A DNA stretch of 35,336 nucleotides from a virus. The notes beneath the pieces were generated by a model. It searched no databases. It had not been told where the DNA came from and was given only the letters and a program-made list of their open reading frames with translations. Within the stretch, counting starts at the first letter, position 1. Each line of letters starts with the position of its first letter. The stretch lies in UHGV virus genome UHGV-0373725. One strand, 5' to 3'. This document shows, piece after piece, positions 185 through 17,821 of this stretch. A program made the translations under genes and the position numbers.

Positions 185-1201
185 TCATTTTTTCTGACCA
201 CCAACAACCGGCACAATTTTAGTTTTCCTGTCGTAAATCGCCGTTTGTCTCGAATTCTTATGGCCTGAAATCGCCTGTTTCTCCTCGAGGCTTCCTTCCA
301 GATCAGAGACACCTTTCGCTTTCAGATCGTGGAAAGTGAAATCTATCTGCAGGTGTGGGTTCTTTTCCTGCGCTGCGATTTTCGCGTCGCGCCAGCGTGA
401 ATTAAAACCGTCACGGGTGTATTTGCTGCCGCTGGTCTGGTGAATGACAAACAGGCTACGGATACCCGGCTTTAACGGCAGGGAACGGGCGAGGGCGACA
501 GCGGCGCGCAGGCGTGGCGACCATGCTTTGATTTGCTTCACGCCTGTTTTCCCCTGGCGGATAAAGATCCCGGTTTCGCGTATCTGGTCTTCAGTCAAAG
601 CCAGCACATCGCTTTGTCTGGCCAGACACAAATAAGCGATTTCCATGGTGGCGCGAACTACGTCTGGAGCAACATCGTAAACCGCTTTGTATTCTTCGTC
701 GGTGATGTAACGCTCCCGGGCTGCCTCTTTGAACTTCTTAACGCCCTGACAGGGATTATGCTGGACGTAACCCCGCTCATAACCCCAGCGGAATACCCGA
801 GAAAGAAAACTCTTTTCCCGGTTGGCCTGCGTTTTACTGGCCATGCCACGCTGATCCATATAGCGCCGGATGTGTTCCGGTTTAATTTTATCGGGGTTAA
901 CCTTCCCGAACACCGGCAACACTTTGCCTGCGTATTTCGTGTAGTCTTTGCGGGTTTCTGCCGCTAAATCCTGCCAGTCAGGGGAAGACATGAATTGATC
1001 GGCCAGAGCCTGAAACGTCTTGCGCTCGACTTCTTCTCCCATGGCTTTTTCATATGCCAGCCATACAGCTGATTGAGGCTCGGAGAGCGCACATAGCCTG
1101 ATAGCCTTGTTATCTTTATTCCTGAATTCATACGCCGCCTTACCGCGATACACGCGGGGCGGCATCCAGTTATCAGCGGGGTTCTTACGTTTTCCGGCCA
1201 T
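185..1201 (-). CDS. int: Phage integrase, tyrosine recombinase family
   Basis: 338-aa ORF; C-terminal half carries the R...H..R...Y catalytic pattern (ARQSD, HDLKAKG, HKNSRQTAIYDR); position beside the tRNA 3' end is typical of tRNA-targeting integrases. Confidence 0.9.
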   Translation of the reverse strand: MAGKRKNPADNWMPPRVYRGKAAYEFRNKDNKAIRLCALSEPQSAVWLAYEKAMGEEVERKTFQALADQFMSSPDWQDLAAETRKDYTKYAGKVLPVFGKVNPDKIKPEHIRRYMDQRGMASKTQANREKSFLSRVFRWGYERGYVQHNPCQGVKKFKEAARERYITDEEYKAVYDVAPDVVRATMEIAYLCLARQSDVLALTEDQIRETGIFIRQGKTGVKQIKAWSPRLRAAVALARSLPLKPGIRSLFVIHQTSGSKYTRDGFNSRWRDAKIAAQEKNPHLQIDFTFHDLKAKGVSDLEGSLEEKQAISGHKNSRQTAIYDRKTKIVPVVGGQKK

Positions 1202-2393: not shown

Positions 2394-4543
2394 TATGCTT
2401 TCTCCTCGGCTTTATTCAGTTCTTTAATGCGCCCATCTTTGATGGAGATGAGTCGGCGGAGCCGGCCAGACAGATAACGTTCATGCTGCGTGTCGCCGTT
2501 GGCCTGGGCGGCTTTAATGTGAACATCGATCTCACGTGCGATAGGGGAAAACACACCGTTGATTTCGTTCACCGTCACGCCATGCGCCAGGGTATTAGCA
2601 ACGCGGCTTAATTTATCGTCAAACTCCTGGCGGAGCCGTGCTGCATCTTCGGCTGATTCGCTGGCGTTCTTCAGGTCAAACTCGGCCTTGTTCTTCTGGC
2701 GGTACTCCAGATTGTCGTAAAGCCCCATAAAGATATCGCCACTGAATCCGAGGCCGGATAACGCTTTTTTGGTCGCATCTGTCAGTGATTTTTTGGCTGC
2801 TTCGCCGTCGCAGGTGATCCCGTATTTACTACCGTAAATGTAGGGTGTACAGCCGTATGCTGTTTCCTCACCTCGTACTCCGTTCAGGATGTACCAGAGC
2901 CGGACAGTCACAACATGGTGCTGTTCGTTGACGGTATTACCATTCCCATCAAGAACCAGCTCCCACGATGCGTTGTTGTCTTTGCCTTTTACCTGCCGAG
3001 TGATCGGCGCGCCAATATCGAAACGCTCTTCAACAATATCCACGCCCCAGCCGATGCCCTTAGGGCCAAACTCACGTGTGGCAAGCATGGTCATGTAGGT
3101 ACCGTTGATCGAGGTGCCACCGCCGTTCTGTGTGAAAGCCTTAGTAAACCTTTCGTCGGTTTTAAATACGCGTTTCCAGAGGTCTAAATTGTCTTCCCCG
3201 ATAATTGGTTTTCCGACAGCCTGCACAACATCCTCAGCGTTAGGCAGGCTTTCAGCGTGAGCGATTTGTTTTGCTAAACGCTCGGAATCATCAGCCAGTT
3301 TTTCAGCCTTAACGCTTAACTTCTCTTCCGGCTCTGCACCTTCACCAGAGGCATATACGCCATAACCCATATCATTGAGCGTCTCACGCGCCTGTTTGGC
3401 CTGAGTGTCGGTTACAACCGGCTGCTGCGCTTCCACTTTTTCGCCCACGTTTGAGGCGGTATTTTGCGTCGCCTCTGGTTGTTTAACGGATCCTGTCTCG
3501 GTTTCCTCAAAGCGACCGTTGGCCGCCAGCCATGAATCGATATGGCGGCGCAGGCTGTCAGGGAAATGGTAGGTATCTTTCGCCGGTACGTTTTGTACCA
3601 CGCCGAAGATGCTGGCACGGTCGTATTTGAGTATCTGCGGCGTGGTGTGCAGCGATGCTGACCAGCGTTTAAAATCTTCCCGGTCATCGGAAATCATCTT
3701 CTTAGCGTCCAGAAGGTTTCCGGATAGTACCGGCGCATCAGGCGCCAGCGGGAGAAGGGCGGTAGCGATCTCCTGATCCAGCGTTGCATAAGTGTGTTTA
3801 TACCCGCGCTTAGAAATTACCACGGGTGTTTTATCATCGGTGCTGGTGCTGAGAGCGGTATTTTTATATACGCCGGGGGCCAGTTCGTCGCGCTTGCCCG
3901 GATTCTCAAGCCAGCGTTTAACGAACTGAGAGATAGCCGCTTTGCCCGGCGTCTGGTTTTCAAAGTGGGAGAAAATACCCTGAATAAGATTGTTCAGACC
4001 TTCCACATGCATGCTTTGAACCGGGAAGTTATTTTGCAGGGCGCACAGAACATTAAAGTTAAAGCGATCTTCCTCTTCAAATTCCCCATCGTGGTTTTTC
4101 AGATTATCCAGATAATCCACAACCTGAGAATAAAGATGGCCATCAATCGCCGCGGTGCTAAAAAGCAGGACGGCAGCAAAGCGTTCATCAGGGGAAACGG
4201 TCATCAGGTCGATCACTTCATCGTCGGCTGGTAAACCTGCACCACTTCCGGAAGCGCTATCCTGCGCAGTAGAAACCCATTTTTCACCGTCAAAAGTATG
4301 CTGCTGGGCGAATGACTCATCGAACTGGCCAACGGTCGGCAGCGGCTGGCCTTCAACGTGTTCCCACAGTTTCGGTTTGAAATAGTTGTCACCATTGGCC
4401 GGGTATGATTCCCAGAGTTTGCCGGTCATAATGCTTTCGGCCACTTTTTTGTTTGGCGCATCGATGGCGATCGCCAGCTGCACGGCGCCGCAGTCTTTAA
4501 TCGCCGATTTCTTTGGCTCAAATGAGCCGTTGTAGATGGTCAT
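2393..4543 (-). CDS. Large (716 aa) protein with a C-terminal Rad52-like single-strand annealing domain and an uncharacterised ~450-aa N-terminal region
   Basis: Residues ~470-640 show the Rad52/Sak-type pattern (FGPKGIGWG, beta-hairpin VVTVRLWYILNG, AKKSLTDATKKALSGLGFSG compared with human Rad52 ARKEAVTDGLKRALRSFG). Start set at Met12, which sits in the conserved cassette (gaggaaagaccaATGACCATC). Confidence 0.6.
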   Translation of the reverse strand: MTIYNGSFEPKKSAIKDCGAVQLAIAIDAPNKKVAESIMTGKLWESYPANGDNYFKPKLWEHVEGQPLPTVGQFDESFAQQHTFDGEKWVSTAQDSASGSGAGLPADDEVIDLMTVSPDERFAAVLLFSTAAIDGHLYSQVVDYLDNLKNHDGEFEEEDRFNFNVLCALQNNFPVQSMHVEGLNNLIQGIFSHFENQTPGKAAISQFVKRWLENPGKRDELAPGVYKNTALSTSTDDKTPVVISKRGYKHTYATLDQEIATALLPLAPDAPVLSGNLLDAKKMISDDREDFKRWSASLHTTPQILKYDRASIFGVVQNVPAKDTYHFPDSLRRHIDSWLAANGRFEETETGSVKQPEATQNTASNVGEKVEAQQPVVTDTQAKQARETLNDMGYGVYASGEGAEPEEKLSVKAEKLADDSERLAKQIAHAESLPNAEDVVQAVGKPIIGEDNLDLWKRVFKTDERFTKAFTQNGGGTSINGTYMTMLATREFGPKGIGWGVDIVEERFDIGAPITRQVKGKDNNASWELVLDGNGNTVNEQHHVVTVRLWYILNGVRGEETAYGCTPYIYGSKYGITCDGEAAKKSLTDATKKALSGLGFSGDIFMGLYDNLEYRQKNKAEFDLKNASESAEDAARLRQEFDDKLSRVANTLAHGVTVNEINGVFSPIAREIDVHIKAAQANGDTQHERYLSGRLRRLISIKDGRIKELNKAEEKA

Positions 4544-4555
4544 TGGTCTTTCCTC
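4541..4555 (-). promoter_or_regulatory. Conserved translation-initiation cassette GAGGAAAGACCAATG at the annealing-protein gene, preceded by a GGCGC-gtgacct-GCGCC hairpin
   Basis: Read directly on the minus strand. Confidence 0.6.
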
Positions 4556-4587
4556 TTGGTTACTGGCGCAGGTCACGCGCCGGTTAA

Positions 4588-4911
4588 TTAAAACGGTACG
4601 TCGCTTTCTTCAATTGGAGAGTGATCGATGCACAGCAGCTGCTGAATCTGGTCTTCAATAACACCCAGCTCCTTCTTTGCTTCGGCAGAGATTTTCTCTT
4701 TCTTCGCACGAAGGGCATTAACCTGCATACCAATAATGTCGATTGGCTCTAAAGCTGGAATGGCAACCTCTACCGTTTTGGTAGTAACGAGGACATACAG
4801 ATCAGGGTATTGCTGTGACATGTCACAGGTGAATGAGTGATAAGACGTTGGTAGATATGGTTTGGTTGTGGCCATAACGTAAATAGTTACGGGGATGGTA
4901 AGCGCTTCCAT
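4588..4911 (-). CDS. Hypothetical early protein (107 aa) with an acidic C-terminal tail ending ...IEESDVPF
   Basis: Good Shine-Dalgarno (AAGGAGtcgctATG); first gene of the leftward early operon. Confidence 0.6.
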   Translation of the reverse strand: MEALTIPVTIYVMATTKPYLPTSYHSFTCDMSQQYPDLYVLVTTKTVEVAIPALEPIDIIGMQVNALRAKKEKISAEAKKELGVIEDQIQQLLCIDHSPIEESDVPF

Positions 4912-4973
4912 AGCGACTCCTTGATGATATATACTCAGAGCCGATCAGCGGCTCTGTCGTTGGTCTTTCCTCG

Positions 4974-4995
4974 CTACAGGGTTGGTCCCCTGTAG
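4974..4995. promoter_or_regulatory. Hairpin CTACAGG-gttggtcc-CCTGTAG next to a degenerate copy of the cassette (GAGGAAAGACCAAcg, no start codon)
   Basis: 7-bp perfect stem read directly; adjacent motif at 4960-4972. Confidence 0.5.
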
Positions 4996-5029
4996 CATTC
5001 TGGGCGGTTTGGTCACTGTCCCGGGTAAA

Positions 5030-5104
5030 TTAGCCCACTTCGGTGGGCTTTTTTACGCCTGAAGGTTGCCGGTCTTTCCCGGCTGTCAGGGTGGTCAGCC
5101 CCAT
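5030..5104 (-). CDS. Possible 24-codon mini-ORF (MGLTTLTAGKDRQPSGVKKPTEVG) behind a perfect copy of the cassette
   Basis: gaggaaagaccaATG at 5102-5116 on the minus strand followed by an open frame to TAA; too short for the ORF track; could be a leader peptide or fortuitous. Confidence 0.2.
   Translation of the reverse strand: MGLTTLTAGKDRQPSGVKKPTEVG
5032..5055 (+). terminator. Strong intrinsic terminator on the plus strand (7-bp stem, UUCG tetraloop, T-run) with no plus-strand gene upstream
   Basis: AGCCCAC-ttcg-GTGGGCT followed by TTTTTT. Confidence 0.55.
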
Positions 5105-5262
5105 TGGTCTTTCCTCGTTACTGCGTGAATGCTTTAAAAAAATGCCCGGGGCGCCCGGGCCAAGACTACACACAGCAATTCGTATTCGTTGCGGTCTTTC
5201 CCGCATGTCATCGTACTGTCGGCGACCCGAAGAATTCGCGCCCGTCTTTCCGGACTGTCAGA
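5068..5262 (-). repeat. Three ~20-nt direct repeats, each a short hairpin with a GAAAGA loop (minus-strand sense) and a different but complementary stem
   Basis: Plus strand: GCCGG-TCTTTC-CCGGC (5068-5083), TGCGG-TCTTTC-CCGCA (5189-5204), CCG-TCTTTC-CGG (5244-5255); each followed by a TGTCA(G) box. Confidence 0.65.
5136..5160 (-). terminator. Intrinsic terminator for leftward transcription
   Basis: GCCCGGG-gcg-CCCGGGC stem-loop preceded on the plus strand by AAAAAAA, which is a U-run after the hairpin on the minus strand. Confidence 0.55.
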
Positions 5263-5374
5263 ACTGTTTCTGAACAACTGCCGCGTGGTTAGTGCGTCTT
5301 TGATGTGGTGAAGCATAACCAAAGGTATTTTTATTGGCAATGTTTTTTACTAACAAAAGTTAATATTAGAGGTG

Positions 5375-5420
5375 TAAAAAAAGGCAATGCATTGAAAACA
5401 TTGCCTTTAATTTATTTTTT
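5375..5420 (-). terminator. Terminator immediately downstream of the repressor gene (hairpin flanked by A-run and T-run, possibly bidirectional)
   Basis: AAGGCAATG-cattgaaaa-CATTGCCTT with flanking A7 and T-rich runs. Confidence 0.55.
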
Positions 5421-5825
5421 TGGAGTGTTTTTTTTCTTTTTTACCAAAAGTAACTCATCAAACAATCGCTGGAATCCGTCAACTTTATCTTTCAACTCAT
5501 TGATATGTCTATCTTTTTCTGATTCAGGTAGAGAATCAAAAAGATCAAGCAGTAGCTTTTGGCGATCATCTAACCGAGGTAAAAGCTCTTCTGCCTTCAA
5601 CGGTTCATCGCTATCGGTACCGTTAAGTAACCATGTCGGAGAGCAACGAAGAGCCTCAGCGAGAGAAAACAGATTTTGCCCTTTTGGGGTGTTAATACCT
5701 GCTTCCCACTTGTAAACGCTGACGCCAGATATGCCAACGGCATCGGCGAGCTGCTGTTGTGTCAAACCAAGCTCTTTCCGTCTCGATGTAATGCGATCGT
5801 TAAAGGTCAATTTTTTCATATCCAT
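5412..5825 (-). CDS. Phage repressor, XRE-family helix-turn-helix (CI / RacR-like); no LexA-type S24 peptidase domain
   Basis: 137 aa; HTH LTQQQLADAVGISGVSVYKWEAG; divergent from a Cro-like gene; no Shine-Dalgarno, TATATT immediately upstream of the ATG (possible leaderless mRNA). Confidence 0.8.
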   Translation of the reverse strand: MDMKKLTFNDRITSRRKELGLTQQQLADAVGISGVSVYKWEAGINTPKGQNLFSLAEALRCSPTWLLNGTDSDEPLKAEELLPRLDDRQKLLLDLFDSLPESEKDRHINELKDKVDGFQRLFDELLLVKKKKNTPKK

Positions 5826-5893
5826 AATATAAGTTAACTTGACATAACTTTCGTTAGTATTTATGTTCCTAACTGACGTTAGGAGAGGAAACT
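5826..5893. promoter_or_regulatory. Divergent promoter/operator region of the immunity switch
   Basis: Plus-strand -35 TTGACA (5839-5844) with a -10-like TATGTT 17 bp downstream; palindrome CCTAAC-tgac-GTTAGG (5868-5883) and a further CGTTAG half-site (5852-5857). Confidence 0.5.
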
Positions 5894-6091
5894 ATGAAGA
5901 CCGAAACTGTTATCAGATTTTTTGGAACTAAAACCGCTGTTGCGCGTGCATTAGGTATCTCTCAAGTCGCTGTAACCCGCTGGGGGACTGTTGTTCCTGA
6001 AAAGCGAGCTGCGCGACTTGAGCATGTAACCGCGGGCGCCTTGAAGTACGACCCTACTTTTTACGAAGAGCAAAACACGTCTAAAGCATAA
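5894..6091 (+). CDS. Cro-like / YdaS-like HTH regulator
   Basis: 65 aa, HTH TKTAVARALGISQVAVTRWG; first gene of the rightward operon; Shine-Dalgarno AGGAGAGG. Confidence 0.7.
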   Translation: MKTETVIRFFGTKTAVARALGISQVAVTRWGTVVPEKRAARLEHVTAGALKYDPTFYEEQNTSKA

Positions 6092-6153
6092 CTACAGGCG
6101 TTATCGAAATCTGATTACGCTTAATCAATTTTCAGCGACAGGAGACGCTCGAA

Positions 6154-6600
6154 GTGGAATACCTCGAAGAACTTAAACGAGAGATCTTTAACTGGGCAGC
6201 GGAAAGCGGGCAGGAGCTGGTTGCTATCGAGATAAGCCGCATGTGGTTTCGTCTTGGTGGTAATACCGGTTCGCTGAAGCTGCACCAGATCGAAGATGCA
6301 GATGGAAACGCCGACTGGCGGGCAATCAACAACAACCGCCAACAAATTTTTCGTTGGTTGCGAGGCGAGACCAAAGCCGCGAGAGCCAAAACTCTGGCGC
6401 TGGTCAAAGCGATGGAAGCGGCGCTGCCGGCAGAACGTTACGCGCGCTTGGGTATGTCCACCCAGTATTTAATTTGTGTGGCCATTCGTGAGTTTGCCGC
6501 GGCGATTATCGCGTTATTACTCGACGCCAGAGACGGGCCGCAGCAAGTCGCCAGAGCATTGCAAGCTATGCGAGAAACACAGCGCCTGACCAGCGTTTAA
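6154..6600 (+). CDS. CII-like / YdaT-family regulator (tentative)
   Basis: 148 aa, GTG start with CAGGAG Shine-Dalgarno; position after the Cro-like gene and motif ...FRWLRGETK... recalled from YdaT-like proteins. Confidence 0.5.
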   Translation: MEYLEELKREIFNWAAESGQELVAIEISRMWFRLGGNTGSLKLHQIEDADGNADWRAINNNRQQIFRWLRGETKAARAKTLALVKAMEAALPAERYARLGMSTQYLICVAIREFAAAIIALLLDARDGPQQVARALQAMRETQRLTSV

Positions 6601-6608
6601 CCTGTACC

Positions 6609-6623
6609 GAGGAAAGACCAATG
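6609..6623 (+). promoter_or_regulatory. Conserved translation-initiation cassette GAGGAAAGACCAATG, preceded by a GCGCctgaccaGCG hairpin and TTAACC
   Basis: Read directly; identical 15-mer at 9249 and 17807. Confidence 0.6.
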
Positions 6624-7837: not shown

Positions 7838-9222
7838 CTCCGCAGGAACTGGAATCTTGTGTACTGGCTGGACTGCTGAACGGTGGAGCAAGTCCGGACG
7901 CTTTCGACGTGATCGCATCGACGCCTGAAGAATCATTCAGCATTGTTTTTCATCGTCGCGCCTTCTCGGAAATCAAAAAACAGGCGTTGACGAACGGTCT
8001 GATCGATATGCTGTTTGTCAGTGAGGCTCTGGGAGGGAGTAGCCTGGCTGATTTATCAGAGATTTCGCGTATGCCCGCCACGGTACCAAACCTGAAAGGT
8101 TACGCCGGGAAAATGGTGAAGGCGTGGCGCAGCCGCCGTATGGCTGAATTACTGCAAAATGGTGCTGATGGTATCCGCCAGGCGAATAATCAGGAGCAGC
8201 GCGATGAGATTGTCGAAACTGCCGTGGCGCAGCTGCTGGACATGACCGGCGACACTGGCGACGTGCAGCCGGTACACATGAGCGAATTATTGCCGGTGTA
8301 CATGGAAACCATGCAGAAGCGCATGGACGGCGAAGAGGGTACTCGCAACCTGAAAACCGGGATCGAGGAACTTGACGATGCGACCGGCGGAATCAACCTG
8401 CAGGATTTGATTGTCGTCGCTGGGCGTCCGGGCATGGGAAAAACAGAATTTGCGCTGAAGATTGTCGATGGTGTTACCGCTGCTGGCGGTGGCGCGTTGA
8501 TATTCAGCATGGAAATGGCCGCTGCGCAAATCGTAGAACGCGCTCTAGCGGGTTCTGGCAACATGTCAGTGTCACGCCTGCGTAATCCCCTCGATATGCA
8601 GGACGAGGACTGGGCGCGCTTTACAGCGGCCATGGAGACCATGAACGGGCGCGATATCTGGATCGTTGATGCTACCGATCTGACGATTGAGCAAATCCGC
8701 GCCGTTGCCGAAACGCATAAGCGCCGGTATCCGCATCTGGCGATGATCGTTGTCGATTACCTTGGCCTGATTAAAAAACCGAAGGCAGAGCGTAACGACC
8801 TCGCGATCGCCCACATATCCCGAAACTTAAAAACTATGGCTATGCGCCTGCATACGCCGACGTTCGCGCTTAGCCAGCTTTCCCGCGCCGTGGATTCCCG
8901 CCCGGCGGCCCAGCGCCGCCCGGTCATGTCAGACCTGCGCGATTCCGGTTCCATTGAGCAGGACGCCGACAGCATCATGTTTCTGTACCGCGATGAGGTT
9001 TACAACCCGGAAAGCCCGGCGGCTGGCGTCGCTGAAATTATCCTGGGTAAAAGCCGCTTCAGCGCCGCAGGCGCAATTATTTATCAGGAATTTAAAAACG
9101 GACACTTTCTGTCAATGGATCAGCATGTTGGCAAAGAGAAAACACGTATCCAACTGGAGGCCGCGAAACCCCGGAAACAACCCCGTAAATACTCAGAGAA
9201 ATTCAATACCGATGCATTTTAA
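7834..9222 (+). CDS. Replicative DNA helicase, DnaB family
   Basis: Walker A GRPGMGKT; DnaB C-terminal motifs (SQLSRAVDSR, DLRDSGSIEQDADSIMFLYRDE). Confidence 0.9.
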   Translation: MTPQELESCVLAGLLNGGASPDAFDVIASTPEESFSIVFHRRAFSEIKKQALTNGLIDMLFVSEALGGSSLADLSEISRMPATVPNLKGYAGKMVKAWRSRRMAELLQNGADGIRQANNQEQRDEIVETAVAQLLDMTGDTGDVQPVHMSELLPVYMETMQKRMDGEEGTRNLKTGIEELDDATGGINLQDLIVVAGRPGMGKTEFALKIVDGVTAAGGGALIFSMEMAAAQIVERALAGSGNMSVSRLRNPLDMQDEDWARFTAAMETMNGRDIWIVDATDLTIEQIRAVAETHKRRYPHLAMIVVDYLGLIKKPKAERNDLAIAHISRNLKTMAMRLHTPTFALSQLSRAVDSRPAAQRRPVMSDLRDSGSIEQDADSIMFLYRDEVYNPESPAAGVAEIILGKSRFSAAGAIIYQEFKNGHFLSMDQHVGKEKTRIQLEAAKPRKQPRKYSEKFNTDAF

Positions 9223-9248
9223 CCGCGCCTGACCAGCGCGATTTAACT

Positions 9249-9263
9249 GAGGAAAGACCAATG
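9249..9263 (+). promoter_or_regulatory. Conserved translation-initiation cassette GAGGAAAGACCAATG, preceded by a CGCGC-ctgacca-GCGCG hairpin
   Basis: Read directly. Confidence 0.6.
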
Positions 9264-9929
9264 ACCACGAATTTAAATTACCCAAAACCAGTAAAACCGG
9301 ATGATGGCTGCAACTGGCTCCCCGTTATTCTCTGGCGCATGAATGCCGGTGCGCGCGCCCGTAGCCGTTCCGTGTTCGTAGCGGCGCCACGTCCGGCCCC
9401 TGTACCAGGCATCACCCCGCAAAAACCGATTAAGCGAGAAATTATCGCCCCTACGGTTTCCGGCCGCAGGCGTAAAACCCACATCGGCACCGTGATTTAT
9501 TCCAGAGGTGAAAAAAGCGTTCGCCTTAGCGAAGGCGCGACTGTCTGGTCTGCTGGCTCAAATGAGCATTTCGATAAAAAAACGGGCCAGCGCGTCGGCA
9601 GTATTGGTCGTCACCGTCTGGTGCTGGAGAGTATCCGCCCATTGCAGGCCAGCGACGCACAACAGGACGCCGGGAGCGTCACCGCGCAGCAACTGGTAGC
9701 CGTGATGAAAGGCAAAACGCTTTCTTACCAGGGCATTCTGGCATTAATCCAGAAGCACTATCCCGATTGTCAGGTGACGACTAAAGAACTTCACGATCGC
9801 GTGTTCGGCATGTTCATGTCGAATTACGTGGGTATCACCCGTCACGACGATATGCCGGTGGTTCACTTCACGCTTAACAGCGTCGATCCCCGTTATTACA
9901 TCGAGTCAGCGAAGAACAAGAGGGCATAA
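9261..9929 (+). CDS. Hypothetical protein (222 aa)
   Basis: ORF with the conserved cassette; basic Pro/Arg-rich N-terminal region; no recognised domain. Confidence 0.55.
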   Translation: MTTNLNYPKPVKPDDGCNWLPVILWRMNAGARARSRSVFVAAPRPAPVPGITPQKPIKREIIAPTVSGRRRKTHIGTVIYSRGEKSVRLSEGATVWSAGSNEHFDKKTGQRVGSIGRHRLVLESIRPLQASDAQQDAGSVTAQQLVAVMKGKTLSYQGILALIQKHYPDCQVTTKELHDRVFGMFMSNYVGITRHDDMPVVHFTLNSVDPRYYIESAKNKRA

Positions 9930-10166: not shown

Positions 10167-10333
10167 AATTTTCAACACCTGATTTTATGCATTGCAGCCG
10201 CAGGACGCTGATGCTGTTCGTACTCAGTGCAAACGTTGTTGGCTGGATAGTCATTATCGCTCTGATATGGGCTGGATGTGAGGTTGCACAGTGGGCGCTG
10301 GAATGTCTCCGCAGTAGTGGGGTGCTTGCGTGA
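10164..10333 (+). CDS. Small putative membrane protein (56 aa)
   Basis: Internal ATG with GGAGAAG Shine-Dalgarno; one hydrophobic segment (LMLFVLSANVVGWIVIIALIWAG); stop overlaps the next gene's GTG start. Confidence 0.35.
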
Positions 10334-10920
10334 ATAACAAATACACCCTGATTTATGCGGATCCTCCATGGACTTACCGCGACAAAGCCAAAGACGGGGA
10401 ACGCGGCGCCGGGCACAAATACCAGACCATGACTGTGCTCGATATCTGCCGTCTCCCGGTCTGGGAACTGGCCGCTGAAAACTGCCTGCTGGCTATGTGG
10501 TGGGTACCGACTCAGCCGCTGGAGGCGTTGCGAGTAGTCGAGGCGTGGGGCTTCCGTCTGATGACCATGAAAGGCTTTACGTGGAACAAATGCTACAGCC
10601 GGCAGACCGACAAACTGGCCCTTGGAATGGGCCATTTGACCAGGGCGAACAGCGAGGATTGCCTTTTCGCTGTGCAGGGGAAATTACCCGCCCGGATGGA
10701 TGCAGGGATCGTTCAGTCATTCACGGCCCCGCGTCTGGAGCATTCGCGCAAACCGGATATCGTGCGCGAAAAGCTGGTGCAGCTGCTGGGCGATGTGCCG
10801 CGTATTGAGTTATTCGCCCGCCAGTCGTCGCATGGTTTCGACGTGTGGGGCAATCAGTGTGAGTCGCCAGCGGTGGCGCTGCTGCCGGGCATTGCAGAAT
10901 ATATCGGGGAGGTAGCCTAA
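10330..10920 (+). CDS. DNA N6-adenine methyltransferase, MT-A70 family (orphan, no cognate restriction enzyme evident)
   Basis: DPPW catalytic motif (LIYADPPWTY) near the N-terminus; size typical of phage MT-A70 methyltransferases. Confidence 0.85.
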   Translation: MNNKYTLIYADPPWTYRDKAKDGERGAGHKYQTMTVLDICRLPVWELAAENCLLAMWWVPTQPLEALRVVEAWGFRLMTMKGFTWNKCYSRQTDKLALGMGHLTRANSEDCLFAVQGKLPARMDAGIVQSFTAPRLEHSRKPDIVREKLVQLLGDVPRIELFARQSSHGFDVWGNQCESPAVALLPGIAEYIGEVA

Positions 10921-10922
10921 CC

Positions 10923-11153
10923 ATGAAAAACACTATTCAGGATTTAATGAATCACCAGTTCGCCATGCTGGAAACCGTCACCGATCCCAATATCAAAGGC
11001 GACCTGCTTCAGGAAGAGTTATCGAGGGCTAAAGCGGTAGTGGAAATCGTCGGGGTGATGGTCGGTACTTATCGAGTTGCGCTCGACGCCCAGAAGGCTA
11101 TTTATGACGGTACCGCAGGCAATGTACCTAAGATTATGGGGATCGAAAAATGA
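10923..11153 (+). CDS. Hypothetical protein (76 aa)
   Basis: ORF with GGAGG Shine-Dalgarno. Confidence 0.5.
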   Translation: MKNTIQDLMNHQFAMLETVTDPNIKGDLLQEELSRAKAVVEIVGVMVGTYRVALDAQKAIYDGTAGNVPKIMGIEK

Positions 11154-11767
11154 TAGAGAAATACACTCCAGCCCAGGAGTTGTTTATCAAGCAGCATATT
11201 AAAAGCTCCACTGCGCGGGAATTAACTGAAATGTTTAACGCTAAATTTGGTACAAATAAGAGCGTGGGCGCTATTCGTATCTGGTGCAAATCTCATGGGT
11301 TAGGAAAGCAGTTTTTAATTGAGCCGCGCTATTCCGATGAGCAGCTGACTTTCATTTATGCCAATAGGAATCTAACGAATGCTGAACTTACAGAAAGGTT
11401 CAACAGGAGATTCGGTACCGATAAAAAACCTGACAATATCAAGGATGTAAAGATAGCTCGCGGATGGACACGCGAACCTAAAGGCCGGAAACGCATTCTT
11501 CCACAGTACATCACTGTTAATAAAGAGAAAATTAGACTCGATGTATACGTATATGAATGCGTACATGGAAAATTACCGTCTGGTTATTCGGTTATCCATC
11601 TGGATAATGATTTGAATAACAACAATATCAATAATCTACGCGCGGCACCTAAAGAAATACGCCGCCTGTTCTCTGGGGCGGGCTACTCAAAAATGCCGCA
11701 GGTTCTTGCTCCGGCGCTGTATGCACAAGTTATGCTCCGCCATGCAATTAAACGATTATCCAGCTAA
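11150..11767 (+). CDS. HNH homing-type endonuclease with two N-terminal repeated modules
   Basis: HNH-like motif (YECVHGKLP...HLDNDLNNNNINNL); duplicated ~45-aa N-terminal modules; markedly AT-rich compared with flanking genes. Confidence 0.6.
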   Translation: MIEKYTPAQELFIKQHIKSSTARELTEMFNAKFGTNKSVGAIRIWCKSHGLGKQFLIEPRYSDEQLTFIYANRNLTNAELTERFNRRFGTDKKPDNIKDVKIARGWTREPKGRKRILPQYITVNKEKIRLDVYVYECVHGKLPSGYSVIHLDNDLNNNNINNLRAAPKEIRRLFSGAGYSKMPQVLAPALYAQVMLRHAIKRLSS

Positions 11768-11779
11768 CTGAGGTGGTTA

Positions 11780-12118
11780 ATGGCTAAATCATCCGCAGAA
11801 CGTAAAGCCGCGCAGAGGGCGCGGCAATCTGCCGCCGGCAACCGCAAAATTGAGCTGGTTCTCGATACGCAGGAACTGGACATGCTGGCGCATAACTGCG
11901 CCGCCCGGCGTCCGGGGCGTGAACCGTACGAACTGGCCGAGTACATCGCTATGCTGATCCGTCAGGATGATGCGCGGCTTAGTGGCCACATCAAATCGAT
12001 CAGCAAACGTCTGTGTAGAAAATGCGGTGAGACGCTGCCGATCACCTCCTGCCCGTGTGCTGGTGATTCGCAATGCTGGGTAACGCGAGGGTGGCACGAA
12101 ACCAAACTGTCAGCATAG
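11780..12118 (+). CDS. Hypothetical protein with C-terminal zinc-ribbon-like Cys cluster
   Basis: 112 aa; CRKCGETLPITSCPCAGDSQC; Shine-Dalgarno GAGGTGG. Confidence 0.5.
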   Translation: MAKSSAERKAAQRARQSAAGNRKIELVLDTQELDMLAHNCAARRPGREPYELAEYIAMLIRQDDARLSGHIKSISKRLCRKCGETLPITSCPCAGDSQCWVTRGWHETKLSA

Positions 12119-12560: not shown

Positions 12561-13157
12561 ATGGCGCAGTATTCTTTTGTAAAAGCACCCGGCGGTGTAT
12601 TAATTCCGGCAACGCCTGACGCCCGCGAATTCTTAGAAAAAAAAGTCCGCATGGGCGGTATTCTGTATGCGGATTTTAAACAGGCAAGGAACTCGGCATT
12701 TCACCGTAAATTTTTTGCCCTCCTGAATCTGGGATTTGATTACTGGCAACCTTCCGGCGGTGCAATATCGCCAGCCGATAAAAAACTGGTTCGGGGTTAC
12801 GTGCAGCTGGTGGCCCACTATGCCGGGCATGGCGACACATTGCAGGAACTGGCGGATCAGTATCTGCGCGATGAGGCAGAAAAACGCGCCGGCAATATCA
12901 GCGCGGTTAAATCGTTTGAAGCTTTCCGTTCCTGGGTAACTATCGAGGCCGGTTTTTATACCGAATACCAGATGCCTGATGGCACCACCCGCAAGGAACC
13001 CAAATCCATATCGTTCGCAAAAATGGACGATGTAGAATTTTCCCAGCTGTACAAATCCGTATTAGACGTCCTCTGGAATTTTATTTTATTCCGCACCTTC
13101 CCTAATCAGCAGGCAGCAGAAAACGCAGCCTCTCAGCTTTTCAGTTATGCGGCCTGA
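12561..13157 (+). CDS. Hypothetical phage protein (198 aa), possibly NinB/Orf-like or DUF1367-like (tentative)
   Basis: Shine-Dalgarno AAGGGG; motif FHRKFFALLNLG loosely resembles the NinB QNRKLWACLG region; family assignment not verified. Confidence 0.5.
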   Translation: MAQYSFVKAPGGVLIPATPDAREFLEKKVRMGGILYADFKQARNSAFHRKFFALLNLGFDYWQPSGGAISPADKKLVRGYVQLVAHYAGHGDTLQELADQYLRDEAEKRAGNISAVKSFEAFRSWVTIEAGFYTEYQMPDGTTRKEPKSISFAKMDDVEFSQLYKSVLDVLWNFILFRTFPNQQAAENAASQLFSYAA

Positions 13158-13167
13158 GGCGGACACT

Positions 13168-13644
13168 ATGAAATTCAATATTCGCTCTCATATCGTCGAG
13201 ATGGATGAGGCCGACGCCTTGATCTTTGTGGGTTACCCCATCCACATCGGCTCGAATGGTTATGCAAAAGTCACCGGCTGGCATTTTGGCAAGGAAAGAT
13301 ACCTTCATCGCGTCATCATGAATGCGGGGCCTCATGATGTTGTAGATCACATTGATGGTAATAAGCTCAACTGCACCCGCTCAAATCTGAGGATCTGCAC
13401 ACAGGCCGACAATACCAAAAATGTGGGCTTGAGGAGTGACAATAGCTCAGGAATTCCGGGAATTTACTGGGTATCCACTCGCCTAAAATGGGCGGCGCAA
13501 ATTTCAGTTGATGGCAGGACCGTTAGTTTAGGCCGCTTTGATGAAATTGCCGATGCTATCAATGCCCGCCGGAAAGCAGAAGATTTGTATTACGGGGAGT
13601 TTGCAGCCAGCAAGGGGGTGCTTTGTGAAAAAGCGCGCCAGTAA
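13168..13644 (+). CDS. HNH endonuclease with AP2-type DNA-binding domain
   Basis: HNH motif (HRVIMN...HIDGNKLNCTRSNLRICTQADNTKN) followed by an AP2-like segment (IPGIYWV...KWAAQISVDGRTVSLGRFDEIADAINARRKAE). Confidence 0.75.
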   Translation: MKFNIRSHIVEMDEADALIFVGYPIHIGSNGYAKVTGWHFGKERYLHRVIMNAGPHDVVDHIDGNKLNCTRSNLRICTQADNTKNVGLRSDNSSGIPGIYWVSTRLKWAAQISVDGRTVSLGRFDEIADAINARRKAEDLYYGEFAASKGVLCEKARQ

Positions 13645-17806: not shown

Positions 17807-17821
17807 GAGGAAAGACCAATG
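17807..17821 (+). promoter_or_regulatory. Conserved translation-initiation cassette GAGGAAAGACCAATG inside the virion module, preceded by palindrome CGTGACATGTCACG
   Basis: Read directly; the only copy outside the early region. Confidence 0.6.

Follow-up and report, generated by a model that had tools for sequence, protein, structure and literature searches.

A predicted IsrB-like antisense RNA facing a terminated PL leader with an RprA-like tail in the leftward early control region of a Gifsy/Rac-like prophage

The DNA analysed here is a stretch of 35,336 nucleotides from the UHGV virus genome UHGV-0373725 (the window), which holds a prophage of about 35 kb running from the integrase gene (185-1201, minus strand) through to the structural genes. 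Our subject is the 500-bp region at 4912-5411, which is flanked by a gene for a 107-aa protein (4588-4911, minus) and by one for a 137-aa repressor with a helix-turn-helix (HTH) domain only (5412-5825, minus). A leftward operon opens with the 107-aa gene and goes on to encode a Gp157 and a DUF4224 protein as well as a 716-aa exonuclease and the integrase; on the plus strand beyond the repressor lie a P22-Cro/YdaS-like gene and a YdaT-like gene. None of the four open reading frames (ORFs) within 4912-5411 was matched in a PHROG search in which the flanking genes did match. We interpret the region as controlling leftward early expression in a lambdoid prophage of the Gifsy/Rac type that has no N gene, and its two strands are predicted to give rise to RNAs that face each other: an IsrB-like antisense small RNA (sRNA) on the plus strand and, on the minus strand, a structured leader from the promoter PL that ends in a sequence resembling the tail of the host sRNA RprA.

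A first-pass annotation of the region had described hairpin repeats with GAAAGA loops and terminators of opposite polarity, and had proposed that the repeats belong to an antitermination RNA, an antisense sRNA or an operator array. That interpretation is partly supported by the present analysis; the RprA-like module and the link between the repeats and a ribosome-binding-site (RBS) cassette were both absent from it. About 85 related prophages, from Escherichia, Citrobacter and Serratia, served for comparison. Scanning viral contigs for the sequence pattern of the leader start, and adding the phage and E. coli matches described below, gave a leader family of 87 loci with 81 distinct leaders.

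An IsrB-like RNA on the plus strand

The following plus-strand elements make up the predicted sRNA gene.

4941-5055, plus: IsrB-like antisense sRNA of about 115 nt with a predicted 5' end (fold, G·U asymmetry, covariation, Rfam)
4930-4935, plus: candidate -10 hexamer TATACT (TATACT or TATAAT in 55 of 55 relatives)
4960-4973, plus: single-stranded seed UUGGUCUUUCCUCG separating the first two hairpins, antisense to a pseudo-RBS cassette (complement invariant in 55 of 55)
4973-4996, plus: sRNA hairpin 1, loop UUGGUC (8 of 9 pairs changed on both sides)
4999-5025, plus: sRNA hairpin 2, loop UUGGUC (5009-5014), G·U-rich and formed on the plus strand only (fold and covariation)
5032-5055, plus: sRNA terminator GCCCAC-UUCG-GUGGGC followed by U6 (terminator scan; compensatory stem changes, with the minus-strand A run kept)

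The predicted fold of the RNA (-56 kcal/mol, z -6.8) consists of a 5' hairpin, the terminator and two hairpins between them, against -37.3 kcal/mol (z -4.5) for the opposite strand of 4941-5055. Among 37 distinct orthologous or paralogous GACCAA-loop hairpins, read in the minus sense, the non-Watson-Crick pairs are A·C in 41 cases and G·U in 4, and this excess of A·C means that G·U pairs form only on the plus strand, where the pair counts are 181 GU and 13 AC. Across 16 representatives 85.5% of cells are paired and 18 of the 34 pairs have changed on both sides; no shuffle equalled this, and slid controls reached 39-54%. Five lines of evidence thus point to 4941-5055 as a functional plus-strand RNA, its expression being predicted from sequence. 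The earlier suggestion of an antisense sRNA ending at the plus-strand terminator is well supported by the fold, the wobble asymmetry, the covariation, the -10 hexamer and the IsrB match described below. The rightward UUCG terminator was recovered by the terminator scan (stem 5032-5049, then T6 to 5055), and the hairpin listed at 4974-4995 is present, although its stem has 8-9 bp and not the 7 bp first given. Just past the predicted sRNA start, a GATC (Dam) site at 4943-4946 is invariant in 55 of 55 relatives, which hints at methylation-sensitive expression of the sRNA.

The Rfam isrB model (RF01386) matches 4969-5053 (plus) at 28.7 bits (E 0.015), short of its gathering score of 35, and the relatives gave no match to this model at E 0.1 or better. 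The best match of our family model R1 in Gifsy-2 is the exact IsrB-1 locus between exoVIII and STM1010 (18.7 bits, E 0.0036), again below threshold. Because the matches are reciprocal but sub-threshold, the window RNA is called IsrB-like and is not a member by the Rfam threshold. In Gifsy-2, IsrB has been mapped experimentally as a starvation-induced RNA of 88/94 nt, opposite in direction to its two minus-strand neighbours STM1010 and exoVIII (PMC2330248). The placement in the window is of the same kind: the plus-strand sRNA sits between two minus-strand neighbours, the leader and the 107-aa gene, and overlaps the downstream gene in its 5' region. The geometry agrees as well, since the 5' end of the 94-nt IsrB of Gifsy-2 is preceded, at a distance of 5 nt, by the hexamer TAGAAT. 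IsrB is associated with ProQ and has a presumed role in lysogeny maintenance (PMC5391140). A search of 4000-6500 for the C4/CI antisense immunity RNA (RF01695) gave no Rfam match at E 10 or better.

Gene-start cassettes and the module array

The seed provides a possible route to action away from the locus. Its complement, the word GAGGAAAGACCAA(UG), recurs as perfect matches of 12-14 nt at six other sites in the window, all on the sense strand.

6608-6621, plus: seed complement leading the gene for a 73-aa protein at 6621
9249-9261, plus: seed complement leading the gene for a 222-aa protein at 9261
17807-17819, plus: seed complement leading the gene for a 138-aa protein at 17819
5104-5117, minus: seed complement in the array described below
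4543-4555, minus: seed complement leading the exonuclease gene at 4543
1430-1441, minus: seed complement leading the DUF4224 gene at 1430

Five of these six complements span the Shine-Dalgarno (SD) sequence to the AUG of real genes, distributed over both divergent operons, and the SD-to-AUG cassette of the five genes is GAGGAAAGACCAAUG. Three cassette sites are preceded by a hairpin of the GCGC-CUGACCA-GCGC type whose loop can pair with the UGGUCA loop of the sRNA, and start regions led by the cassette account for the two strongest trans duplexes anywhere in the window. Within the sRNA gene the complement of GGAAAGACC is kept in 55 of 55 relatives, though this copy is often not followed by a start codon. 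Pairing of an extended cassette with the 3' end of 16S rRNA was considered and set aside: by inspection, only GAGG and CCAA could pair. The covariance model of the sRNA also gives weak matches (17-20 bits) at 9197-9292 (minus) and 4507-4613 (plus), the antisense of two full gene-junction cassettes, so that the sRNA gene resembles a junction module copied in antisense and equipped with a promoter and a terminator of its own.

Seed and cassette differ together between lineages. Divergent homologues found by the family model in other prophages, L278 and L317 (47 bits), have the seed CAUUGGUUAUGCUCC and the gene-start cassette GGAGCAUAACCAAUGACCAACC, with matches of 14-22 nt at several gene starts in both operons, while a homologue in L303 (20 bits) carries yet another seed, to which its own locus contains two complements, of 21 and 11 nt. 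This co-variation fits what would be predicted of a functional sRNA-target relationship, and because sister lineages carry different matched seed-cassette pairs, a natural swap experiment exists.

The cassette copy at 5104-5117 belongs to an array between the two terminators.

5056-5135, minus: module array of cassette CGAGGAAAGACCAA (5117-5104), CUGACCA-loop hairpin (5102-5089), CUGACAG and hairpin B3 (5083-5068) (sequence and relatives)

The array unit of about 36 nt consists of the cassette word, a GACCA-loop hairpin, CUGACAG and a GAAAGA hairpin, and is present in 1 to 4 copies among relatives; 29 distinct stem variants occur around (N)U(G/A/C)ACCA loops. In B3 (5083-5068, minus) a GCCGG/CCGGC stem closes a GAAAGA loop. 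The 24-codon mini-ORF of the first-pass annotation (5104-5030) exists, but its start at 5104 falls in the array and the ATG is missing in 44 of 67 relatives, so it is not conserved. The three direct repeats reported earlier are present as units of about 20-27 nt (5062-5088, 5184-5210 and 5234-5260) and form part of a larger modular system of GGAAAGACC, GACCA-loop hairpins and CUGACAG that is also found before genes elsewhere in the window. The word GGAAAGAC has 11 copies in the window against 0.85 expected, a count reached by 0 of 100 shuffles; 5 of them are inside 4912-5411, every one on the minus strand. The array could provide target copies or protein sites, or could consist of scars.

Repeats of this kind might have no function of their own as RNA, being recombination linkers or decayed gene-start cassettes that module exchange and deletion left behind, in which case the plus-strand RNA would act only in cis or would serve as a terminator of stray transcription. 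The same cassette does occur at module junctions in both operons, the number of units varies among relatives, with genes interspersed in some, certain copies are followed by an ATG and a short ORF, and Gifsy-2 IsrB is without trans sites. However, GGAAAGACC is invariant even in copies that lack a start codon, the stems have undergone extensive compensatory change around conserved loops, every copy is on the transcribed strand, and another lineage, whose cassette differs, retains perfect trans matches of 21-22 nt. We regard this explanation as quite unlikely. Equally, GGAAAGACC and the GACCA-loop hairpins might be operators for a sequence-specific RNA-binding protein, either a translational regulator or a nuclease comparable to T4 RegA/RegB or Mu Com, or else a protein of the host, and the array a sponge of binding sites. 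Short invariant words exhibited in loops or at SD sites, their restriction to the sense strand and a variable copy number in the leader, as in sponge RNAs, would all suit such a protein, but Pfam and PHROG searches found no candidate for it, a perfectly matching antisense RNA is the simpler partner, and the leftward RNA is U-poor without an excess of C over G, a base composition not suggestive of a Rho-utilisation site. This possibility appears very improbable to us.

The PL leader and its RprA-like end

On the minus strand, upstream of the array, the region contains the promoter, its operators and the leader.

5312-5340, minus: PL promoter, -35 TTGCCA, 17-nt spacer, -10 TATGCT (promoter scan)
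5351-5362, either strand: OL operator TAACAAAAGTTA, exact TAAC-N4-GTTA (motif search of 35 kb)
5316-5327, either strand: second OL operator TAACCAAAGGTA, with a single mismatch; it overlaps both the -10 and the spacer of PL (motif search)
5136-5305, minus: PL leader RNA of about 170 nt, from predicted start to intrinsic terminator (family conservation and fold)
5268-5305, minus: 5' module CAUCAA(A/C)GACGCACUAACCACGCGGCAGUUGUUCAGAAA (invariant across immunity types)
5240-5255, minus: hairpin B1, GUCCG-GAAAGA-CGGGC with one U·G pair, after the flank UUCUGACAG (compensatory changes)
5190-5205, minus: hairpin B2, UGCGG-GAAAGA-CCGCA, after AUGACAU (sequence and relatives)
5136-5182, minus: RprA-tail-like module AAUUGCUGUGUGUAGUCUU, then terminator with stem 5160-5144 and U7 (Rfam, alignment, terminator scan)
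5374-5407, minus: repressor-gene terminator, hairpin AAGGCAATG...CATTGCCTT and then a U run (read from sequence)

The exact operator motif TAAC-N4-GTTA occurs at three sites in 35 kb, namely 5351-5362 and the OR sites 5845-5856 and 5870-5881, the latter two located between the repressor and cro genes. Since the exact motif is confined to OL and OR, the promoter at 5340-5312 is the repressor-controlled PL. Among relatives the promoter region upstream of 5305 varies with immunity type, and near-invariance begins exactly at the predicted start, 5305 (CAUCAA...). The hairpin repeats had been offered as a possible operator array, a proposal that is not supported, the operators being the separate sites at 5351-5362 and 5316-5327. 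The immunity region (5412-6600) is Gifsy/Rac-like, and its HTH-only 137-aa repressor without a peptidase domain suggests induction through an antirepressor and not by self-cleavage. At the repressor-gene terminator the terminator-type Rfam model STnc240 has a weak sub-threshold match, which was rejected along with those of AgvB and rsmX, all being far under threshold and accounted for by terminators.

The leader is laid out as the 5' module, B1, B2, the invariant AUUGCUGUGUGUAGUCUU and the intrinsic terminator; it has a minimum free energy of -62.7 kcal/mol (z -3.0), and its short forms are 86% identical. The terminator scan bore out the leftward terminator of the first-pass annotation, with a stem at 5160-5144 and U7 running to 5136. 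In all variants the fold predicts pairing of the 5' module with the RprA-like 16-mer, and since both are nearly invariant, covariation lends this predicted helix weak support. The hairpins are as described earlier, with different but complementary stems around GAAAGA in B1, B2 and B3, and they covary both among the three copies and among orthologues. The B1 stem variants are GUCCG/CGGGC, GUCUG/CAGGC, GCCCG/CGGGC, GCCG/CGGC and UUCGG/CCGAA, and the loop and the 5' flank UUCUGACAG stay invariant. B1 and its flank are kept beside PL even in lineages that use a different cassette and sRNA seed. Because these include L278 and L317, where the seed cannot pair with the loop, the GAAAGA hairpins must have a partner of their own.

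In many relatives the leader is longer by 150-870 nt, an insertion that looks structured and separates B2 from the 3' module, and an L138-type subgroup has other hairpins in place of B1 and B2 with both leader ends unchanged. The insertions are absent from the window; examples are L002:2880-3215 (minus), L001, L004, L005, L021 and L090. Subtypes have in common the blocks CCCUGUCACGGCAGUGAA and GCCCCGUGAGGCUUAA and a long closing stem, CACCACUAUCAAAGAGCG...CGCUCUUUUUGAUAGUGGUG, and some have a tRNA-like T arm. The insertions match no Rfam family, and ARAGORN calls no tRNA-like element in them, nor in the window; they may constitute an undescribed large structured RNA. The PL leader of Gifsy-2 (L243:6700-6760, minus) has AACGUUCCGC..GCCGGCGAUAAGGCAAA in common with some leaders of the family, which indicates that part of the leader predates the prophage family of the window.

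A nut/boxB-like function is the main rival role for the GAAAGA hairpins. Together with the UUCUGACAG flank they would be nut/boxB-like or put-like signals that let polymerase read through the leader terminator to reach the genes for recombination and excision, either by loading a phage or host factor onto RNA polymerase or by direct action, and such a role would be compatible with the sRNA. Like lambda nut and HK022 put, they lie directly downstream of PL and ahead of terminators, and a strong terminator separates PL from all left-operon genes. B1 is found just downstream of PL in every lineage, with loop and flank invariant and five compensatory stem variants, independently of cassette and seed; its GC stem with a purine-rich GAAAGA loop recalls boxB of lambda nut, whose loops are GAAAA and GAAGA. 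In HK022, put is a two-stem RNA of about 70 nt, with putL at PL and a second copy after PR. The leader is unlike these systems in that it has no convincing similarity to HK022 putL and no repeat on the PR side, the plus strand after cro carrying linear cassettes only and no GAAAGA-loop hairpin, and in that L138-type members exchange the GAAAGA hairpins for others. The absence of an N-like gene, already remarked upon, holds for the window: its ORFs gave no such match in Pfam or PHROG, and a scan for small arginine-rich ORFs yielded no credible candidate. In L278 (5908-6117, plus), and also in L270 and L265, an ORF of 70 aa with an arginine-rich N-terminus (MNAAQRRKAYRKHPKAG...) follows directly after the GAAAGA hairpin behind PL. 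This ORF (MNAAQRRKAYRKH... in L278) is a possible N-like factor, but it belongs to no PHROG family and a tblastn search with it found no homologue in the window. The earlier idea of a cis-acting antitermination RNA has in its favour the conserved position of B1 and its flank, and lacks the putL similarity, the PR-operon copy and the N-like ORF. Overall we judge this explanation unlikely.

The 3' end of the leader relates it to a host regulator. The Rfam RprA model (RF00034) matches 5134-5235 (minus) at 43.3 bits and relatives at 50.2 and 48.3 bits, all below the gathering score of 70. Leader nt 122-170 align to nt 55-106 of E. coli RprA, with 22 consecutive identical bases, ACGAAUUGCUGUGUGUAGUCUU, and a similar terminator; RprA's own terminator sequence is present in some relatives. 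The 47 nt at the 3' end of RprA exist, beside the full-length RNA, as the processed form RprAproc, which is a regulator in its own right (PMC9262595) and is released by RNase E (PMC6202311). The leader family has, as an invariant, UUGCUGUGUGUAGUCUUU with the aligned terminator, and the leader tail contains the AA|UUGCUG junction at which the 47-nt processed RprA starts. The 5' stem-loop and the rpoS-activating seed of RprA (UCCCCUG and AACGAAUU) were not found in the leader, where UCCCCUG is missing and a 7-nt match to AAUUCGUU is all that remains. The leader is thus not RprA but ends in an RprAproc-like module.

The 16-mer UGCUGUGUGUAGUCUU (5162-5177, minus) is invariant in the leader family and also occurs, with a terminator, in at least 100 further viral contigs (L262-L361) that lack the window-type leader and cassette. 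A T5 run follows within 70 nt in 89 of 100 contigs, and CCACAAC often stands just before the 16-mer. Ten of these contigs were compared with Rfam and matched no family except tRNA. One member of this group, L272, has an HK022 putL-like leader upstream.

The region is matched by two phage records labelled as Stenotrophomonas phages and partially in 10 of 5,426 complete E. coli genomes. The two records, vB_SmeS_BUCT708 and BUCT709 (OM816835.1, which is L001, and OM816834.1), are about 91% identical to the enterobacterial prophage family of the window, and their stated Stenotrophomonas host may be questionable. Further members of the family came to light when species-representative genomes were scanned, in Serratia grimesii, S. 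quinivorans, one Citrobacter and Escherichia whittamii, all four confirmed by covariance model. Elsewhere in the window, the rightward operon encodes an MT-A70 methyltransferase and two HNH endonucleases (10330-10920, 11150-11767 and 13147-13644), and a PHROG 'transcriptional regulator' at 11780-12118 may be a late-gene regulator.

A model for the region and its known counterparts

We propose, with moderate confidence, that the region encodes an antisense sRNA that acts in cis and in trans and faces a terminated leader RNA. The model builds on the observed sequence anatomy, conservation and strand-specific structure of the locus, and on a complementarity that co-varies across lineages. PL, flanked by two repressor operators, would start a structured leader of about 170 nt that stops at the terminator at 5160-5136, and a terminated or processed leader would resemble the host regulator RprAproc over its last 45 nt or so. 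The sRNA, probably a distant relation of IsrB from the Salmonella Gifsy prophages and placed and oriented as IsrB is, would start at the -10 hexamer, which overlaps the RBS region of the first leftward gene, and end at the UUCG terminator. In cis it would be antisense to the 5' untranslated region (UTR) of the left operon; in trans its unpaired UUGGUCUUUCCUCG would pair with the GAGGAAAGACCAAUG cassettes and block translation of five genes in both operons. Leaky lytic, recombination and excision functions would thereby be kept silent in the lysogen. More speculatively, strong convergent transcription from PL on induction, bringing with it extra copies of the target word, might relieve the block.

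Several points weigh against this proposal. The expression and 5' ends of both RNAs, and all regulatory outcomes, are predictions from sequence, and both matches to IsrB are sub-threshold. The sRNA promoter has a poor -35, and a start near 4941-4943 permits an alternative fold that pairs part of the seed. The co-variation of seed and cassette could be passive, if cassettes are homogenised by recombination and the sRNA overlaps one copy. In the Gifsy-2 genome, IsrB has 27 trans matches against 23.6 expected, none above chance, so that the cis-antisense role is probably general and the trans role a lineage addition. A role for the GAAAGA hairpins as general decoys of the sRNA is weakened, B1 being kept where the seed is not complementary. 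Activation of rpoS by the leader was rejected, the duplex energy with the E. coli rpoS leader being no better than that of shuffles; duplexfold energies for long RNAs proved non-discriminating. Finally, a strong terminator stands between PL and the left operon, and no antiterminator was found.

A more far-reaching version may be put forward as a tentative one, about which we are doubtful. The IsrB-related sRNA would be a phage-wide translational master switch whose seed has co-evolved with the cassette in at least two, perhaps three, lineages, and the PL leader would oppose it, through convergent transcription and extra target copies, while releasing a copy of the RprA tail that reprograms the host. 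If this were true, UGCUGUGUGUAGUCUU would mark a large undescribed class of prophage RprAproc mimics.

The locus is made up of known kinds of element, an IsrB-type antisense sRNA facing a terminated leader sRNA, and it shows the organisation of PL in lambdoid phages without N. The literature searched contained no description of an RNA from a phage that resembles RprA, of a PL leader ending in an RprAproc-like tail, of the cassette word, or of an sRNA seed matched to a co-varying shared RBS cassette. The copying of the active RprA tail at the ends of prophage early leaders and in at least 100 other viral contigs would point to a broad and so far unrecognised prophage route into host sRNA networks. 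To our knowledge IsrB, known since 2008, is without an assigned function, and its family gains a testable proposal in cis control of the left operon combined with trans repression through a shared RBS cassette.

The leader end is like RprA in its 22 identical bases, its terminator and the AA|UUGCUG junction, but the module is embedded in a longer leader driven by a phage PL, in contrast to the Rcs-controlled promoter of RprA. A precedent for a host-directed phage leader is StxS, the terminated PR' leader of Stx phages and a trans-acting sRNA that copies host sRNA functions (PMC7547250). Both are phage leader transcripts ended by a terminator ahead of an operon; StxS comes from a constitutive late promoter, whereas the PL leader, a putative sRNA, is under repressor control.

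IsrB-1 and IsrB-2 (of the Salmonella prophages Gifsy-2 and Gifsy-1) are the closest counterparts of the window sRNA. They, too, are RNAs of about 90-115 nt, antisense within the PL operon, that start in the RBS region of a left-operon gene and cover its 5' UTR, and they have in common with it a UUUGGUC-loop hairpin and the terminator GCCC(A/G)CUUCGG(U/C)GGGC. The window sRNA differs from Gifsy-2 IsrB in having an extra hairpin, an anti-RBS seed with multiple trans sites and different flanking genes. Other small phage antisense RNAs, such as c4 of P1 and P7, the CI RNA of P4, sar of P22 and OOP of lambda, resemble it in pairing with repeated or RBS sequences in phage transcripts and in restraining lytic functions. 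Unlike them, the window sRNA is cis-encoded opposite PL, and its predicted targets are a common RBS cassette that extends across both operons.

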